Assembly: GCA_963515595.1 (NCBI GenBank)
Contig: CAUPYH010000010.1
Coordinates: 1,382 to 33,381, forward strand
Reading direction: 5' to 3'
Length of the DNA: 32,000 bases
Source: an uncultured Eikenella sp.
GTDB taxonomy: Bacteria > Pseudomonadota > Gammaproteobacteria > Burkholderiales > Neisseriaceae
Shown: positions 3,232-9,263 of the stretch, piece after piece
Layout of the letters: the number at the start of each line of letters is the position of its first letter
Position numbering within the stretch: the first letter of the stretch is position 1
Program-made: the position numbers and the translations under genes
Notes under the pieces: model-generated
The model's input: only the letters and a program-made list of their open reading frames with translations
What the model was told of the DNA's origin: nothing
Databases searched by the model: none

Positions 3232-4674
3232 TTACAGCAGTGCGTCTACAAATTCGCGGGCGTTGAACGGGCGCAAGTCGTCGATGCCTTCGCCCACGCC
3301 GATAAAGCGTACCGGCACGGGGCGGCGGCTGGCCAGCGCAGCTAGCACGCCGCCTTTGGCCGTGCCGTCGAGCTTGGTCACGATAAGGCCGGTAAGCCCC
3401 AGCGCGTCATCGAAGGCAATCACTTGGTTCACGGCATTCTGGCCGATATTGGCATCCAGCACCACCACGATTTCATGTGGCGCGTCGGGCATGGATTTTT
3501 GCAACACGCGCTTCACTTTTTTGATTTCTTCCATCAAATGGGTTTGCGTGGGCAGGCGGCCGGCGGTGTCGGCCAGCACGATGTCGATGCCGCGCGCTTT
3601 GGCGGCTTCCACGGCATCGAAACAGACGGCGGCAGAATCGCCGGAAGCTTGGGAAATCACGGTAACGCCGTTGCGCTCGCCCCATTCGGCCAGCTGCTCG
3701 CGGGCAGCGGCACGGAAAGTGTCGCCGGCAGCCAGCAGCACGCTTTTGCCCTGAGCTTGGAAATATTTGGCCAGCTTGCCGATGGAAGTGGTTTTGCCTG
3801 CGCCGTTGATGCCGGCGAGCATAATCACAAACGGCCGTTTGTCTACGGGCAAGTCCAGCGGCTGCTCCAACGGTTTAATCAGCTCGTAGATGGCCTCTTT
3901 CAATACGCTGCGCAGTTCTTCGCCGTCTTTCAGGCCGCGCAGGCTCACGCGTTGGCGCACTTCTTCCATCAGATGCTCGGTGGCTTCAATGCCCATATCG
4001 CTGGTGAGCAGCACGGTTTCCAGCTCTTCATACAGGTCTTCGTCTATCTTGCCGCCGCCAAACACACCAGCCAGCGACTTGGCCATTTGCTGGCGCGATT
4101 TGCTCAAGCCTTGCTTGAGGCGGGCGGCCCAGCCAAGCGAGGCCGGCTGCTCTGGAACTGGCTCGACAGCGGCTTTATGGATGTCGGTGCTTGATGGAGC
4201 AACTGATTCCGCAGCTGTCTGCTCACTGAATGCTGGCTCGTTGCCTGCCTGAGCATCAGAGTCGTGTTCATCAATCGAAGCAGCTGCTTCAGCTGTAGCA
4301 ACAGATGTTTCGCCCGCTACTTGCTCTACTACTTCTACAGCCGGCACGGCATCAGTGATTTCATCTGCCTGTGTTTTAACAAGGGATTGTTCCGCCAAAA
4401 CTTCCGGTTGTGCGAGAGATGCTTCAACGTCTGCCACTTCTGTGTTTGCGGTTTCGTGCACCAATGTTTCGGTAGCCAAATCAGTTAACTCCGACTCGGC
4501 CACAGCAATTTCAGCAGCAGGCGTTTGGGCAGCGGCTTGCTCTGCTATTTCTGAGGCAGCTTGCGTCGCAACCTCATCGGTTTGCACTGCTTCTTCAACC
4601 GCCTGTACCAACTCGGCTTCCTGTTGCGGGGATGTGGGTTGCGCTTTGCGCTTTCTAAAAAATCCAAAAACCAT
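3232..4674 (-). CDS. ftsY: signal recognition particle receptor FtsY
   Basis: C-terminal SRP-GTPase NG domain (GINGAGKTTSIGKLA, DTAGRL, TKLDGTAKGG) after an acidic A/E/T/V-rich A domain. I moved the start from 4779 to the ATG at 4672-4674 (MVFGFFRKRK), because the upstream 35 codons run through a DUS hairpin. Confidence 0.9.
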   Translation of the reverse strand: MVFGFFRKRKAQPTSPQQEAELVQAVEEAVQTDEVATQAASEIAEQAAAQTPAAEIAVAESELTDLATETLVHETANTEVADVEASLAQPEVLAEQSLVKTQADEITDAVPAVEVVEQVAGETSVATAEAAASIDEHDSDAQAGNEPAFSEQTAAESVAPSSTDIHKAAVEPVPEQPASLGWAARLKQGLSKSRQQMAKSLAGVFGGGKIDEDLYEELETVLLTSDMGIEATEHLMEEVRQRVSLRGLKDGEELRSVLKEAIYELIKPLEQPLDLPVDKRPFVIMLAGINGAGKTTSIGKLAKYFQAQGKSVLLAAGDTFRAAAREQLAEWGERNGVTVISQASGDSAAVCFDAVEAAKARGIDIVLADTAGRLPTQTHLMEEIKKVKRVLQKSMPDAPHEIVVVLDANIGQNAVNQVIAFDDALGLTGLIVTKLDGTAKGGVLAALASRRPVPVRFIGVGEGIDDLRPFNAREFVDALL

Positions 4675-4727
4675 CTGGTTGGTTATACTCCATAAACAAA
4701 CCGGTTTACTAACCGGCAATGGAACAA

Positions 4728-4767
4728 AGGCTACCTGAAACAGATTGGCTGTATTTTCAGGTAGCCT
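4728..4767. terminator. inverted DUS pair, possible terminator of the GTPase operon
   Basis: Exact DUS at 4728-4739 (+) and 4756-4767 (-), between the Roadblock gene stop (4802) and the ftsY start (4674). Confidence 0.5.
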
Positions 4768-4801
4768 GGCGTACGGCACTCAGTGCGTATTGGAGAGGCG
4801 T

Positions 4802-5170
4802 TTAGCTGCTTTCCAAATCCACAATGCTGCGAGCTGCACGGCGGGCATCGAGCAGAATTAGGCCCAATTTGGCGCTTTCGCGGGCGGTTACTACCAATAC
4901 GGTATCTTCACCGGCCTGAATCAGCAGGATATAGCCATCAGTGCCTTTCACAATCACCTGCTCCAATTCACCACACAGCAGCTCTTTGGTAGTACGGTTA
5001 CCCAAGGCCAGCAGAGCGGCAGACATCGCGCCCACGCGATCCGGGTCGATATTGCCATGGAGCATGGAAGCAATCGGCAAACCGTCACTAGAAATAACGG
5101 CGGAAGCGGTAATATCAACAGACGAACTGTTCAAATCGCTCAATACGGAAGAAACTAATTGTTGTTGCAT
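4802..5170 (-). CDS. Roadblock/LC7 (MglB/CvnB-like) domain protein
   Basis: About 122-127 aa, typical Roadblock size. The pattern is Roadblock-like (AVISSDGLPIASM ... AALLALG ... GYILLIQAGEDTVLVVTA). The start is either the ATG at 5170 or a TTG at 5185. It is the last gene of the 5-gene operon. Confidence 0.8.
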   Translation of the reverse strand: MQQQLVSSVLSDLNSSSVDITASAVISSDGLPIASMLHGNIDPDRVGAMSAALLALGNRTTKELLCGELEQVIVKGTDGYILLIQAGEDTVLVVTARESAKLGLILLDARRAARSIVDLESS

Positions 5171-5193
5171 ATCGTGTTTTCCCAATAATTTAA

Positions 5194-5853
5194 TCAGAAT
5201 GTTTCAATTTGGTTCGCAGAATCAACGATTTGATACAGCGCCCGCACCAAAGACACAAATTCGTCTTTATGCAGCTGCGGCACGCCGCCGGTCACCAGGA
5301 TAAATTTCAAATCACCGATATACAGCGGGAAGAAGGTCAGCTCACTCTGTCCTGACGGATCGCAAATGCCCACCGCGTTGTGGTAGATGTTCAGGTTATT
5401 CTTAATCAGAAGACTGTGCTGTTCATACAAACGCACTGCCTCACTAGCCAGCACAGCGATTTCTTCGGCAGCTTCGTGGTTGAAACCGGAGCTGGAGAAA
5501 TAGAAACCGTCTTGATCCACCAACAATGCTTTTTGCACATCAGAAAGGTGCATCAGGATATTGGGCAGGCCGGTACCGCTGAGCAAATCGGTTTTCTTGT
5601 CCGGCTTGTCTTCTCCATACAAAAATTCCAAACGCTGCATGCGATACAACAAGTTGAGTGCGGCATCAATATCGTTGGTTTGCGCCCAGCGCAATACGTT
5701 TTCACGGCTAACGGTTTCCTGCTCACCGGCTTGCAAAATACCGCCCAGCAGAGTACGGCTAGCGCTTTGGCCTTTATTGGAAACCGCATAATATGCACCG
5801 GCAGGAGTTACTCGTGGGTATAGATTAGGCTGCAAAAGTAGTGTCGAATCCAT
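5194..5853 (-). CDS. hypothetical protein with a Roadblock-like C-terminal half
   Basis: 219-aa ORF, 2 nt downstream of the GTPase gene stop and 8 nt upstream of the Roadblock gene. The C-terminal segment ALLVDQDGFYFSSSGFNHEAAEEIAVLASEAV resembles the Roadblock beta-alpha pattern. The domain call is by eye only. Confidence 0.6.
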   Translation of the reverse strand: MDSTLLLQPNLYPRVTPAGAYYAVSNKGQSASRTLLGGILQAGEQETVSRENVLRWAQTNDIDAALNLLYRMQRLEFLYGEDKPDKKTDLLSGTGLPNILMHLSDVQKALLVDQDGFYFSSSGFNHEAAEEIAVLASEAVRLYEQHSLLIKNNLNIYHNAVGICDPSGQSELTFFPLYIGDLKFILVTGGVPQLHKDEFVSLVRALYQIVDSANQIETF

Positions 5854-5855
5854 TT

Positions 5856-6392
5856 TTATACCTCTAAACCAGGATCAATTGAATACAGCATAGCTGTAAC
5901 CAGCTGTTTCACATCGTTTTCATTACGAGCATCAATTTCAAATACTGGCACGTTCATGCCGTATTGCAACAGATATTTCTGGTATACCTCGATACCCGGC
6001 GTGGCTTTCAAATCCATCTTGGTTACACCAACAACCACAGGGGCGGTTTTGAGCAAATCGCTGAATGAATCCAAGAAGAACTTCAGATCTTTCAAAGGAT
6101 TGGAACGGGTATTATCCAGCAACAACACCAAGCCCATACTACCTTGACTCAGAATATCCCACATGAAATCAAAGCGTTCCTGCCCAGGCGTACCGTACAA
6201 ATGCACTTTAGTTTTTTCATCCAAGTGAATCACGCCGTAGTCCATGGCCACGGTGGTGTGGCTTTTCATGGAGGTCGTCATATCAGATGCACGGGCATCG
6301 GTCTTGATCGGCGGGTCGTCCGACAGTGCAGCAATAGCGGTAGTTTTCCCCACGCCGACCGGGCCTGTAAAAATAATCTTATTCTCTGCCAT
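5856..6392 (-). CDS. small Ras-like GTPase, CvnD/MglA-like (COG2229-type)
   Basis: 178 aa. G1 is GPVGVGKTT, switch I is TTVAMDYG, G3 is LYGTPGQERF (the Asp of DxxG is replaced, as in MglA/CvnD-type proteins) and G4 is the variant VTKMD. An AAGGAA RBS lies upstream. Confidence 0.85.
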   Translation of the reverse strand: MAENKIIFTGPVGVGKTTAIAALSDDPPIKTDARASDMTTSMKSHTTVAMDYGVIHLDEKTKVHLYGTPGQERFDFMWDILSQGSMGLVLLLDNTRSNPLKDLKFFLDSFSDLLKTAPVVVGVTKMDLKATPGIEVYQKYLLQYGMNVPVFEIDARNENDVKQLVTAMLYSIDPGLEV

Positions 6393-6403
6393 GTTATATT
6401 CCT

Positions 6404-7531
6404 TTATCGGCCAATAATTTTATTCATCAAACGTTGTAGCAGTCCGCGTTGTTTCGGTACTTCTTCATCGCCATTATCTTCATGCGCTCTGGCATGAACT
6501 CTCTCCGGACGCTGTATAGTTTGCGTTTGGGCGGCAGCCCTAGCTTGCCCTGCTCCAGTAGTTTGAGGCTCAGCTTGTCCAGCTGATTCCACAATCAGAT
6601 GGTCGGTAACATAGACTGCAGTAAGATAATCAGCCAAATCTTTGTTATCGATAAGCATCAGCTTGTGCAGGATAGTCAGGCTACCTGAAGCCTTGGTTAA
6701 GAAGGCAGATAGGCGCATTGATTCGGCAAGCGGTGCCAAACGGGTCAGGTTTGGCCAGTTGCGAACTTTGAATACTGTATTTTTGTTGATGACTTTGGGG
6801 AAACGGCCATTACCTGTCCAAATAGCCAGCTGCCACAAGCAAGCGCTGATGGAGAGTTTGGCCTTAGCCTTCAAATGTTCTTCTGTTATGACTCGTGTCT
6901 GCAAATCAACAAATTTTTGCTCACACAAAGATTGGAGTGTTTCAGAATCGGTTGCCAGCAACACTTTCTGAACAGAAGGGAACACCAACAGCACAGGCTT
7001 GCCATTGTGCATTACTGCCACATCGTTATCCTGCTTGGCTGCTTTGCGCACTTCGCCCAGCAAGCCGCTGTCTTCATCAAAATGTTCGATGGTAATATTG
7101 GCTGAATGAGATTGTGTGGCTGCTAGTTCAGTCTCTTGTGTGGCCTGTCTAGAAACAGGAACCGCTGAGCCACCACTACTACTAGCTACCCAAATACCAT
7201 TACCCTGTTGCAAGTTCTTCAAGTTCAAAAACAGAGTATCAAACTTAATTGGTTTAGCCAAATAAGGAGCGGTTACCGGAGGCGGAGAACTGGAGAAATA
7301 CACCACTTTCGCATCTGGAAACTGGGTTTTCGCATCTTTCCAAATCTCTACATCGGTATCGGCATCGGCCAACACCATATCCGGCTGAATGCCCTGCTCC
7401 ACCGTAACCAGTTCATAATTGGTGATGCCGTGCATTTTGAATGCCATGCGGAACATCGCATATTGGCGCTCATCCATGCCCAACAGCATAATGTGAACCG
7501 TCTTCACTTGGGGGATTGCGTTATTAGTCAT
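6404..7531 (-). CDS. receiver (REC)-like domain protein with an uncharacterised C-terminal domain
   Basis: 375 aa. The N-terminal ~110 aa follow the REC layout (HIMLLGMDE ... PDMVLADAD ... VVYFSSS ... LAKPIKFDTL). No output domain is recognisable. The start is 3 nt after the upstream gene's stop. Confidence 0.65.
   Translation of the reverse strand: MTNNAIPQVKTVHIMLLGMDERQYAMFRMAFKMHGITNYELVTVEQGIQPDMVLADADTDVEIWKDAKTQFPDAKVVYFSSSPPPVTAPYLAKPIKFDTLFLNLKNLQQGNGIWVASSSGGSAVPVSRQATQETELAATQSHSANITIEHFDEDSGLLGEVRKAAKQDNDVAVMHNGKPVLLVFPSVQKVLLATDSETLQSLCEQKFVDLQTRVITEEHLKAKAKLSISACLWQLAIWTGNGRFPKVINKNTVFKVRNWPNLTRLAPLAESMRLSAFLTKASGSLTILHKLMLIDNKDLADYLTAVYVTDHLIVESAGQAEPQTTGAGQARAAAQTQTIQRPERVHARAHEDNGDEEVPKQRGLLQRLMNKIIGR
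6678..6689 (+). repeat. DUS, the only copy inside the GTPase operon
   Basis: Exact 12-mer. Confidence 0.8.
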
Positions 7532-7534
7532 TTA

Positions 7535-9043
7535 TTATGTCCGAACAGAACCGTAGTTGATTTTCTGTAGCAACTGGCTCATTGCCAATACTACCTCCTC
7601 TGGCGGATGCTGGATATTGGCACGTACCTTATGCAATACCTGCTCCAAGCGCTCCCACTCTTCCGCACGTTCGCAAATATCGAACAGCGTGATATACAGC
7701 TGCGATTCGCTGGGGTATTCCAAAATTGATTCTTCCAGCAAATTCATTGCTTCATCCAACTGACCGTACATCAACAACGATTCGACATCACGCAACACTT
7801 TTTCTGCCGGCGTCTGTTTTACGCTGACATCATCAGTACGCGTTCTAATAAGAGGCTTGCGGTGCGCTTTTTGGGTACTGGTGCCACGATCTAAGAAACC
7901 GTTGGCAATCCCGATTTCGCGCAATTGAGCCTCATTCGGATTAGCTTCCAACTGAGTAAAGATAGGGTGTTCACCCAAGTTGAGACCCCAGCCCAGCATC
8001 CTTTCCTTCACTTGGCGGCCATACTGGCCTAATGTGTAGTAGAGCTGCCAAAGATGTTGGGCAAATCGGTCGATATTTTGATTTTTATAATCCAAACTCA
8101 GCGCATCAATAATCAATGCAGCCGGTTTGTTAGCCTGGCGGATGGCCTTATTGGCATAGCTGACTGCCGCATCATAGGCCAATCTATCCTTCATCAGGCG
8201 ATAGCCTGACTCAGGCTCCATAAAGCCCATCAGAGCGGCTTTTTCTTCATCGTGCACAAGAATAGCACCAGCATATTTGGAGTTGGTCACCAACTCCTTG
8301 CGAGTCTTGACTGACGCCAAATCTGCCACTTTCTGCTCGTTCTCGGCTTCTGCAACTGCACGACGGCTTTTCTGTTTGGTCTGCTTGCTTTGTGCCGGAG
8401 CATCCAATCCGCTGCGTTCGCCGATTTCGGCAGAGGTTTGCTGCACACCCCAGCCCAGCACTTCTTCAGCCAACACGCGTAGATTAAGGTTGTTTTTATC
8501 GACAGCCAAACCTTGTTTGATGTAGTCCTCAGTTTGTGCTTTGGTGAGCAGGTTGCCGAACTGGCGCAAAGTTTCAGCCAACTCGTCCGGCTTTTTAGCA
8601 TCTAGCCACAGTTGCACCAGCTCATTAACCAAGGTGCTGCGCATACCGTCGCTCACCGCTGCCGAGCCGGAAGTTAGATATTGAGACAGCGATTCGGCTG
8701 CTTTTTCATGATAACCAAATTGCTTATAGACTTTATATTCCGTGAGCGCATCAACTTCCTGCGCCACATTGACTGCTGCTTCTTCCGCTTCCACATCAGG
8801 CACAGCTTCCCAACCCCAGTCTTCACTCACCTCAACCTCTTCAGGCTCAGATGGCGAAACTGCTGCAGCCTGGCGAACAGCTGCCGGCGCTGACTTTTTG
8901 CTGCCTGATCGGGCAGCAGCGCGTTTACCTCTGCCTTTTTTCTCTTCATCAACAGCGGCTTTTGCCTGTTGTTTTTGGCGGCGCTGCACAAAAATCAAGC
9001 CTGCCAAAACCACCAATAGCGGAACTAGAATCGTCAGATCCAT
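7535..9043 (-). CDS. membrane-anchored protein with a TPR-like/FimV-C-terminus-like region
   Basis: 502 aa. It has an N-terminal TM helix (LTILVPLLVVLAGLIFV), a K/A-rich then acidic linker, and helical repeats ending LMYGQLDEAMNLLEESILEYP...LFDICERAEEWERLEQVL. A GGAGG RBS precedes it. It is the first gene of the operon. Confidence 0.7.
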   Translation of the reverse strand: MDLTILVPLLVVLAGLIFVQRRQKQQAKAAVDEEKKGRGKRAAARSGSKKSAPAAVRQAAAVSPSEPEEVEVSEDWGWEAVPDVEAEEAAVNVAQEVDALTEYKVYKQFGYHEKAAESLSQYLTSGSAAVSDGMRSTLVNELVQLWLDAKKPDELAETLRQFGNLLTKAQTEDYIKQGLAVDKNNLNLRVLAEEVLGWGVQQTSAEIGERSGLDAPAQSKQTKQKSRRAVAEAENEQKVADLASVKTRKELVTNSKYAGAILVHDEEKAALMGFMEPESGYRLMKDRLAYDAAVSYANKAIRQANKPAALIIDALSLDYKNQNIDRFAQHLWQLYYTLGQYGRQVKERMLGWGLNLGEHPIFTQLEANPNEAQLREIGIANGFLDRGTSTQKAHRKPLIRTRTDDVSVKQTPAEKVLRDVESLLMYGQLDEAMNLLEESILEYPSESQLYITLFDICERAEEWERLEQVLHKVRANIQHPPEEVVLAMSQLLQKINYGSVRT

Positions 9044-9141
9044 TTATCCCACCCTCCCTAAACATAATTGAATGAAAAAAATATTCATCCTACTTCTCTT
9101 AACATCTTTCCAAACACAAATGTCGGAAATTTAGCCTAAAG

Positions 9142-9169
9142 TATATATTAATTTACACGTTCTATTCAA
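9142..9169 (-). promoter_or_regulatory. candidate sigma70-type promoter for the GTPase operon
   Basis: On the minus strand: TTGAAT, 16 nt, TATATA. It lies in a 220-bp AT-rich gap upstream of the 502-aa gene. Sequence pattern only. Confidence 0.25.
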
Positions 9170-9263
9170 ACGGATTAATGAAACTCTCCGCTAAAAAGAA
9201 AGAGATTACACACTAACAGCATATCTTTTTCTCTGCCTAGCAGGTAATAATTGATGGGCAATT

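Follow-up and report, generated by a model that had tools for sequence, protein, structure and literature searches.

A conserved Group 3 MglA module in Eikenella that probably acts as an inner-membrane-associated molecular switch

Prokaryotic GTPases of the MglA family were divided into five groups by Wuichet and Søgaard-Andersen (2015; PMC4316618), and their Group 3 systems, reported from beta- and gamma-Proteobacteria including Neisseria, are the closest described relatives of the five-gene operon that is analyzed here. The operon is located in a stretch of 32,000 nucleotides from an uncultured Eikenella sp. (contig CAUPYH010000010.1, positions 1,382 to 33,381), which is called the window in the following. 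Sequence comparison identifies the locus as the Eikenella corrodens orthologue of the Group 3 MglA module, which corresponds to NMB0475-0479 in Neisseria meningitidis MC58, and we consider it probable that this vertically inherited module acts as an inner-membrane-associated molecular switch.

Group 3 GTPases carry a Thr in the place of the Group 1 arginine finger, GTPGQ as G3 motif and DAR as G5 motif; GTPGQ is common to Groups 2-5 and DAR to Groups 2 and 3 (PMC4316618). Their gene neighbourhood was described as highly conserved and comprises a gene for a receiver-like "domain of unknown function" (DUF) protein, the GTPase gene and one or two mglB genes, and within the DUF protein a variable linker joins the receiver-like N-terminus to a C-terminal part that is conserved (PMC4316618). 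In Table S2 of that study, N. meningitidis MC58 (NMB0476) and four other meningococcal strains are entered with the arrangement DUF>MglA>MglB>MglB and a GTPase of 178 aa; the same entry is given for N. lactamica (NLA_5090), Leptothrix (Lcho_0655), Methylomonas (Metme_1347) and Teredinibacter, and the arrangement with a 188-aa GTPase for Acidithiobacillus. The gonococcus (FA1090 NGO1475, NCCP11945 NGK_1742) appears there solely with two MglB as an orphan pair (MglB<MglB), without a Group 3 GTPase, and this listing alone suggests that the GTPase gene was lost or pseudogenised in N. gonorrhoeae. The copy of Snodgrassella was named "group 3 mgl operon" in a 2024 study (PMC11112851). Hence, the remark in a preliminary description of the window, whose author knew of no characterised module of this kind in the family, has to be corrected, since the module had been catalogued, Neisseria included, in 2015 (PMC4316618).

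The operon consists of five co-oriented open reading frames (ORFs) on the minus strand at 4802-9043 of the window, which are separated, in gene order, by 3, 11, 2 and 8 nt. The first gene (7535-9043; orthologue NMB0475/NMV_0522) encodes a 502-aa protein with a transmembrane (TM) helix and tetratricopeptide repeats (TPR), followed by the genes for the 375-aa receiver-like DUF protein (6404-7531; NMB0476/NMV_0523), the 178-aa small GTPase of Group 3 MglA type (5856-6392; NMB0477/NMV_0524), a long Roadblock protein of 219 aa (MglB-type; 5194-5853; NMB0478/NMV_0525) and a short Roadblock/LC7 protein, which is listed with 127 aa from a TTG (4802-5185; NMB0479/NMV_0526). It is flanked upstream by genes for MltA (9264-10583) and MutS and downstream by the gene for FtsY. 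The orthologous operon of N. meningitidis 8013, NMV_0522-0526, matches in gene order, gaps and sizes (1437/1098/537/645/360 bp), and the GTPase is 78-81% identical to those of the Neisseria loci, which are syntenic. Moreover, the primer published for NMB0478 fits the beginning of the gene for the long Roadblock in two loci, those of N. lactamica and N. polysaccharea (L079, L080). Synteny, GTPase identity and the entries of Table S2 thus tie the Eikenella locus to the listed Group 3 members, and the 502-aa protein is 99-100% identical to E. corrodens proteins.

The 178-aa product had been predicted to be a Ras-superfamily GTPase of the CvnD/MglA branch, and both predictions were confirmed. Searches with hidden Markov models (HMM) from Pfam matched it to ATP_bind_1 (E-value 4.7e-17), Ras (1.9e-11) and also Roc. 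As the Group 3 definition asks for single-domain GTPases of up to 240 aa with an insertion between G1 and G2, its length of 178 aa fits, and the insertion is present as TDARASDMT, conserved in the family as TDAxASDMT; in the alignment it amounts to 12 residues relative to Sec4/Rab and lies between the P-loop and switch I. The P-loop reads GPVGVGKT, the switch-I region H45-T46-T47-VAMDYG with T46-T47 as G2 and without an arginine finger, G3 is GTPGQ (in the context LYG-TPGQ-ERF), G4 is TKMD and G5 is DAR (within EIDARNEN). The motifs quoted in the preliminary description (TTVAMDYG, LYGTPGQERFDFMWD and TKMD) are all found in the translation. All testable Group 3 motifs are thereby present; the canonical G4 TKMD, conserved in homologues as TK[MT]D, is allowed by the wording of the paper, according to which the proteins 'often lack the lysine'. 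The arginine finger and the TVPGQ motif of Group 1 are absent (H-T-T and GTPGQ instead). By overall sequence the GTPase is about equally close to eukaryotic Sec4/Rab (7e-8) and to MglA (1e-5). As the catalytic glutamine is present but an arginine finger of its own is missing, its GTP hydrolysis is expected to depend on partners.

Candidates for such partners are encoded immediately downstream by the two coupled MglB-type genes, whose products both contain the Asp-Gly pair (SSDGLP in the short and DQDGFY in the long protein). The short one is a canonical Roadblock/LC7 protein as proposed before (Robl_LC7, 2.9e-16), and only its start needs to be revised: the gene probably begins with the ATG at 5170, because the homologues have 119-122 aa and begin at the position of M6, which gives a protein of 122 aa and a gap of 23 nt. 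The corresponding gap in the meningococcus is 22 nt. Its nearest solved relatives are the unnamed Robl_LC7 entry 7f8m (2e-19) and CvnB5 (3leq, 3e-7), and MglB was not matched among the solved structures at E <= 0.1. The long protein has a conserved N-terminal extension of about 85 residues followed by a divergent Roadblock core (~90-213). The Roadblock-like C-terminal half that had been postulated for it is supported by a Robl_LC7 match just above the cut-off (1.6e-5, 24.9 bits vs 23, residues 103-152), and six of eight other long-Roadblock homologues match Robl_LC7 in the same register (E 3e-4 to 0.06). A profile comparison with hhalign gave no signal for the N-terminal extension as a second Roadblock domain. 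Furthermore, no additional Roadblock or GTPase paralogue, such as the orphan mglB-3 of Snodgrassella, was found in the window.

The gene directly upstream of the GTPase gene encodes the receiver-like DUF protein, as is typical for Group 3. Neither the 375-aa protein nor any of 20 family members has a Pfam match; PF00072 (Response_reg) in particular was not found at E <= 1 in the Eikenella protein and at E <= 0.1 in the 20 members. The REC-like N-terminus of the preliminary description, with its LADAD, S and KP positions, gained support from the predicted structure. In the AlphaFold2 model the N-terminus forms an alpha/beta domain, for which all top Foldseek matches are receiver domains, the best one being 2qxy_A (E 5.7e-4, TM-score 0.66 normalised to the target). 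The receiver-like domain covers about residues 9-110 and includes LADAD; in the model, which lacks a clear alpha4, the strands beta1, beta3, beta4 and beta5 carry D20/E21, D56, S80 and K93-P94 at their ends. By its residues the protein keeps a putative phospho-acceptor pocket. A deep profile search with the family returned 1252 clusters at E <= 1e-3, and among the 106 representatives that were analyzed the pocket is retained at D56 in 92, at D58 in 103, at S/T80 in 85, at K93 in 102 and at P94 in 106.

Two disordered linkers divide the remainder of the protein: the first connects the receiver-like domain to a conserved domain (residues 146-316), in which a WPNLTR motif is near-invariant, and the second connects this domain to an amphipathic tail at the C-terminus. 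The possibility that the 146-316 domain represents another Roadblock was rejected, because its hhalign comparison with both Roadblock profiles gave only E >= 0.03 and a probability < 3%. The tail, GLLQRLMNKIIGR (6404-6445, last 13 codons), has a hydrophobic moment at the 97.5th percentile, and its consensus G[LFM]LxR[LI][LM]x[KR] is near-universal in the 106 representatives including the most distant ones. It resembles the tail of E. coli MinD (…KKGFLKRLFGG), compared with …RGGFLSRLLRKVAGL in the family and …RGLLQRLMNKIIGR here; both tails are amphipathic and basic and are placed at the extreme C-terminus after a disordered linker. However, the 375-aa protein is not a ParA/MinD ATPase, and the membrane binding by its tail is a prediction. 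Several database records of Kingella, Conchiformibius and Wielerella give the receiver-like family the name "alpha-glucan phosphorylase" without domain support, which is likely a misannotation that is being propagated.

The 502-aa protein, for which one N-terminal TM helix and TPR-like repeats had been suggested, indeed possesses a single TM helix at residues 1-19 (Kyte-Doolittle hydropathy, KD, 2.57). As this helix is followed by RRQK, the bulk of the protein is predicted to be cytoplasmic. It continues with a variable charged linker and conserved helical blocks at ~95-200 and 255-495, of which the C-terminal TPR unit (423-484) was recognized by TPR_14 in 17/17 family members (best 2.6e-7). 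A profile search against the PDB sequences gave a weak TPR match to HsiE1 only (E 0.011). With FimV and TspA the protein shares the general layout (TM helix, charged linker, TPR) and nothing further; its interpretation as a pilus scaffold of this type was rejected, as no LysM or FimV_C (TIGR03504) match was obtained in Pfam or NCBIfam. In UniRef the family is labelled "23S rRNA methyltransferase" without domain support, and this label likely represents a misannotation.

The survey of synteny across the Neisseriaceae that had been suggested for this locus was carried out with one genome per species. The receiver-like gene was found in 94 places, of which 80 loci were kept; the five genes are colinear in 79 of them, and the remaining one is cut by a contig end. 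They are also complete and colinear in 70 of 84 further loci, while the other 14 are short and cut by contig ends. Hence, the cassette is colinear in every locus of adequate length, and it is present in every Neisseriaceae genus sampled, i.e. in Eikenella, Kingella, Alysiella, Conchiformibius, Simonsiella, Snodgrassella and many Neisseria. A metagenome scan for diverse Group 3 loci retrieved almost only oral Neisseriaceae, which raised the counts but added no diversity. In the meningococcus, NMV_0522-0526 are classed as "persistent" genome (PMC7606547). Judged by sequence divergence the cassette is inherited vertically, because it has diverged in parallel with the flanking MutS and MltA: identities to the window are 93% (MutS), 86% (MltA), 99% (GTPase), 86% (TPR protein) and 83% (receiver-like protein) in E. 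longinqua and fall to 68%, 60%, 83%, 50% and 44%, respectively, in Snodgrassella, with which the MltA/MutS context is shared.

The TM/TPR gene does not appear in the scheme of 2015. In every complete locus it precedes the receiver-like gene, and the same five-gene order is kept in Aquitalea, a metagenome-assembled Chromatiales genome, Vitreoscilla and three metagenomic lineages; two further metagenomic contigs, each cut at one end, carry the five-gene cassette as well. Because the order is maintained in several other lineages, its product is, on the basis of synteny, regarded as a conserved fifth component of the module. In these lineages, the identities amount to 67-75% for the GTPase, ~60% for the short Roadblock, 46-50% for the long Roadblock, 29-33% for the TPR protein and 27-35% for the receiver-like protein. 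In more distant lineages the upstream gene encodes a shorter, TM-less homologue that keeps the C-terminal TPR module; two of these (L173, 5246-6004, 252 aa, E 7e-9; L175, 3244-4026, 260 aa, E 4e-6) overlap the receiver-like gene by 4 nt. Locus L171 (3194-4582) encodes a TM-less 462-aa homologue (E 1e-19) which begins with MIGILQRLRKKVM, the same amphipathic motif as in the C-terminal tail of the receiver-like protein, in line with a membrane association, and locus L174 has no upstream TPR gene.

Compared with the kindred systems, the locus shares GTPase length, motifs, gene order and the receiver-like DUF with the subclass of Group 3 systems that has one MglA and two MglB. Nothing essential sets it apart from them; the published scheme omits the TM/TPR gene, the amphipathic tail of the DUF protein and the association with a putative oxygen sensor in other lineages (see below), and the published prediction of a winged helix-turn-helix (HTH) in the DUF C-terminus was not reproduced by Foldseek. 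With the Group 1 Mgl systems of Myxococcus xanthus and Thermus thermophilus (RomR-RomX, MglC, SgmX) it has in common a Ras-like GTPase adjoining Roadblock regulators, a receiver-domain protein and a TPR protein as partners, and the bacterial G1-G2 insertion. Unlike in Group 1, H45-T46-T47 replaces R-T and GTPGQ replaces TVPGQ, the Roadblocks are not detectably close to MglB by sequence, the C-terminal domain of the receiver-like protein differs from RomR, RomX is missing, the TPR protein has a membrane anchor and its gene is part of the operon, and type IV pilus functions do not depend on the orthologues in the meningococcus. The conservons CvnA-D and the mycobacterial Mfp systems (Group 2) likewise contain GTPGQ and DAR and a short Roadblock close to that of Eikenella (CvnB5, see above), and they, too, are highly conserved multi-gene cassettes in which one component is membrane-associated and one protein has an unknown fold. 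However, they belong to another phylum, and HATPase, HisKA and DUF742 were not found at E <= 0.1-1 in the five proteins or their families; the locus thus has no histidine-kinase-like CvnA and no DUF742 CvnC, it has two Roadblocks instead of one, and TM/TPR and receiver-like proteins stand in the place of the kinase. Motifs and gene content therefore agree with the earlier view that the gene set matches neither a conservon nor a Myxococcus-type Mgl locus. The eukaryotic Ragulator-Rag platforms (Levine et al. 2013; PMC3747258) also use Roadblock dimers as a GTPase platform with a separate membrane anchor, but this is an analogy without orthology, as a TM/TPR protein is not the lipidated LAMTOR1 and one GTPase is not a Rag heterodimer.

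In the switch that we propose, the 178-aa GTPase would cycle between GDP- and GTP-bound states and rely on its partners for hydrolysis. The short and the long Roadblock proteins, which always occur together, may form a heterodimeric GTPase-binding platform that serves as GTPase-activating protein (GAP), guanine nucleotide exchange factor (GEF) or both. The receiver-like protein could pass an input, either phosphorylation or a ligand at the acidic pocket, to the GTPase via its WPNLTR domain, or alternatively act itself as GEF or effector. Two elements would fix the complex to the inner membrane on its cytoplasmic side, namely the TM/TPR scaffold and the MinD-like tail of the receiver-like protein. 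The subunit contacts, the GAP or GEF roles and the tethering in this scheme are modelled on Roadblock-GTPase biology as known from MglB, CvnB and Ragulator. The association with the inner membrane is supported by the work of Lång et al. (2009; PMC2885667), because NMB0478 was recovered from the inner-membrane fraction though it lacks a TM segment; its Eikenella orthologue is also free of TM segments (maximum KD over 19 residues 1.28).

Several observations weigh against this interpretation. For Group 3 itself, subunit contacts, GTP binding and hydrolysis and GAP or GEF activity are inferred by analogy, and a GAP role after the example of MglB is an extrapolation, because the short Roadblock is nearer to CvnB5 and 7f8m. 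The assignment of the long Roadblock is based on one Pfam match barely above the threshold and on consistent sub-threshold ones, and the profile-profile match between the long and the short family is weak (E 0.08). Phosphorylation of the receiver-like protein is uncertain, since Asn occupies the acceptor position in 13 of the 106 family representatives and a histidine kinase gene was found neither in or adjoining the cassette in the window nor in the Neisseriaceae loci compared. Alternatively, the amphipathic tail could be bound by the TPR domain as a docking peptide. Finally, the DNA binding of NMB0478, which was sequence non-specific in a South-western overlay (PMC2885667), is left unexplained by the switch model.

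An obvious expectation, also expressed in the preliminary description, is that the module controls polarity or type IV pilus function, i.e. twitching, pitting or competence, in the manner of MglA/MglB/RomR of Myxococcus. Piliated, twitching bacteria are frequent among the hosts of Group 3 systems (Neisseriaceae, Dichelobacter, Acinetobacter, Xanthomonas; PMC4316618), Group 1 MglA with TPR partners such as SgmX and the Bdellovibrio TPR protein is reported to stimulate type IV pili, and in one lineage (L167) the second gene upstream of the cassette encodes a PilZ-domain protein. In Snodgrassella, the two coupled mglB genes were reported as beneficial for gut colonisation in transposon sequencing, which speaks for a biological relevance of the module as such, and the mutation G78R in the unlinked third mglB (mglB-3) improved the colonisation of a non-native host and altered the colony-edge flares on soft agar, which the authors attribute to type IV pilus motility (PMC11112851). 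However, this motility phenotype maps to an unlinked paralogue and is thus indirect evidence, the GTPase lacks the arginine finger and TVPGQ of Group 1, and the Neisseriaceae loci show no linkage of pil genes to the cassette. Genetic evidence from the meningococcus also contradicts the hypothesis. In NeMeSys 2.0, 1589 meningococcal mutants were screened, of which 20 lost aggregation or twitching, and all 17 known pil genes (100%) were recovered (PMC7606547). All five genes NMV_0522-0526 were mutated in strain 8013 in this collection, and each of the mutants was positive for aggregation and twitching (PMC7606547). As all five mutants were obtained, the genes are non-essential. In addition, the NMB0478 null mutant showed wild-type colony morphology, piliation and competence (PMC2885667). 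Type IV pilus biogenesis, aggregation, twitching and competence are thereby excluded as required outputs in the meningococcus, the only Group 3 host on whose orthologues the comparison with the Group 1 motility phenotype could draw; our literature search found no functional study of Xanthomonas, Stenotrophomonas, Dichelobacter or the gonococcus as Group 3 hosts. A modulatory or polarity role in rod-shaped relatives such as Eikenella is possible, but we regard pilus or polarity control as an unlikely function of the module.

Another explanation follows the Phyre2 predictions of Wuichet and Søgaard-Andersen (PMC4316618), according to which the DUF protein would be a response-regulator-like transcription factor with receiver and winged HTH, so that the GTPase module would control transcription. 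The receiver fold was confirmed by the predicted structure, and the last ~70 residues of the 146-316 domain, with three helices and one strand in the model, are compatible with a winged helix; the DNA binding in the overlay experiment could be counted in its favour, too, but it was sequence non-specific and concerned another subunit, NMB0478. When residues 143-320 were modelled alone, a confident structure was obtained (predicted local distance difference test, pLDDT, 86.8; predicted TM-score, pTM, 0.82), for which Foldseek found no fold match in the PDB better than E 0.57 and no DNA-binding winged helix among the top matches. Hence, the winged-HTH assignment of this domain was rejected, and no HTH-type Pfam match was found in 20 family members. 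The conserved MinD-like tail and the adjoining gene for a membrane anchor moreover favour the membrane over the nucleoid, and control of transcription by the receiver-like protein appears quite unlikely to us.

The preliminary description had further regarded the operon as a low-GC island poor in DNA uptake sequences (DUS). The low GC content is real: its hand counts of 48% at 7561-7620 and 62% at 2041-2100 were recomputed as 48.3% and 61.7%, the operon as a whole has 48.5% vs ~63% in the flanking housekeeping genes, and the GC at third codon positions (GC3) is 0.47-0.55 in the operon genes vs 0.79 in mutS. The 11-mer GGCTACCTGAA, which we take to be the core of the Eikenella-type DUS dialect, occurs in 39 copies in the window vs 0 expected. 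Within the operon one DUS was observed vs 5.4-7.2 expected; the Poisson P of 0.03-0.006 is too optimistic, as DUS occur in clumps. The deficit is modest, and other parts of the window have longer stretches without any DUS. The sole DUS of the operon is located at 6679-6689 inside the receiver-like gene, and the meningococcal NMB0478 gene also contains one DUS (Lång et al. 2009; PMC2885667). A horizontally acquired genomic island, for which this composition would speak, is nevertheless scarcely credible, given the occurrence of the cassette in every Neisseriaceae genus sampled and its "persistent" status in the meningococcus, identities that fall in step with MutS and MltA, the same MltA/MutS context in Snodgrassella, a GC deficit that was also seen in 15 of the 17 loci sampled from other genera (-0.01 to -0.12), and the absence of an integrase, tRNA or transposase bordering the cassette in the window. 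The idea of a defence system was rejected as well, as a PADLOC search gave no matches.

The real mobile, low-GC and DUS-poor island of the window is a filamentous (Nf/MDA-like) prophage at ~13.6-23.4 kb (13600-23400; GC 47%, three DUS). Its ORFs at 14645-16036 and 18436-19563 encode a Rep_trans initiator (E 1e-31) and a Zot-like protein (E 9e-23), respectively; they are accompanied by genes for a TspB-like protein (20217-21881, E 4e-10) and, at 22306-23337, for a transposase of the IS110 family. A truncated TspB gene (NMV_0527) is also found in N. meningitidis 8013, directly behind the orthologous operon.

At the DNA level, the operon is preceded on the minus strand by the AT-rich leader of 220 bp that had been described before (9044-9263, between the mltA stop codon and the first gene; GC 32.3%). 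It contains a sigma-70-like site at 9169-9140 (TTGAAT-18-TATACT, a consensus match only), and the count of promoter-like sites in the leader region is no higher than in shuffled sequence. The operon ends, as also proposed, at a DUS hairpin: two Eikenella-type DUS in inverted orientation (4729-4766) pair to a stem of 12 bp, with UUUGUU behind it, at a distance of 35 nt from the last stop codon, and a second hairpin at 4717-4700 consists of a 7-bp GC stem and a U-tract. The 116-nt region around the DUS pair folds with -37.8 kcal/mol (z = -4.1), and 4700-4766 on the minus strand is the probable terminator region of the operon. Both terminator-like hairpins are situated upstream of the likely ftsY start. 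As mechanically listed, the ftsY ORF begins with a GTG at 4779 and would overlap both hairpins; the probable real start is the ATG at 4674 (MVFGFFRKRK…), which gives an intergenic region of 127 bp.

Which signals feed the proposed switch may be indicated by its neighbours in other lineages. A Lactamase_B/ODP gene (PF19583) for a protein of 254-255 aa lies directly upstream of the TPR gene in four non-Neisseriaceae lineages (L082/L083, 355-1122; L084/L085, 2381-3148; L167, 3642-4409; L169, 3383-4147), and the four proteins are mutually 69-79% identical. We take PF19583 to be a family of oxygen-binding di-iron proteins (ODP), and the ODP gene may be the sensory input of the module in those lineages. 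In L167 it is preceded by the PilZ gene, and downstream neighbours comprise protoglobin (L081/L082), a PAS protein (L173) and Phosphonate-bd genes (L166, L167, L173). None of these, ODP, protoglobin, PAS or Phosphonate-bd, is linked to the cassette in the Neisseriaceae loci. The search for an ODP homologue in the window gave only a weak generic match to the metallo-beta-lactamase fold (20241-20459, E 2e-4), which falls at the start of the TspB-like prophage ORF and not in a dedicated gene. In the meningococcus, the protein NMB0477 was 5.1-fold increased in a strain without the Fur-controlled small RNA NrrF, of which it is an in-silico target (PMC5586341), and NMB0475, under the label "23S rRNA methyltransferase", was increased in an hfq mutant (PMC5458458).

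From these data a wider picture can be drawn, which we offer as doubtful and tentative: Group 3 systems in general would be five-subunit membrane-tethered complexes in a redox or iron pathway that is often fed by ODP, the Neisseriaceae would have lost the linked sensor but kept the iron regulation by NrrF, and the WPNLTR domain would be a new GTPase regulator. If this is true, Group 3 would represent a "proteobacterial conservon" or a Ragulator-like platform, whose TPR scaffold and DUF tail had been overlooked; its input would come in many lineages from an ODP sensor, sometimes with protoglobin or PAS proteins, and the 146-316 domain would be a new type of GTPase regulator, either GEF or effector. 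The orthology of the Eikenella locus removes the claims of a new system and of an island, and the most obvious hypothesis on its function, namely that it controls type IV pili, did not stand the test in the meningococcus as the best-studied member. What is added here to the known module are the fifth, TPR-containing subunit, the MinD-like tail, the retained receiver pocket, the fold-orphan domain and the link to ODP in other lineages. The five-gene module, probably a G-protein switch, belongs to the core genome and occurs in major pathogens and commensals such as Neisseria meningitidis, Kingella, Eikenella, Xanthomonas, Stenotrophomonas and Acinetobacter.

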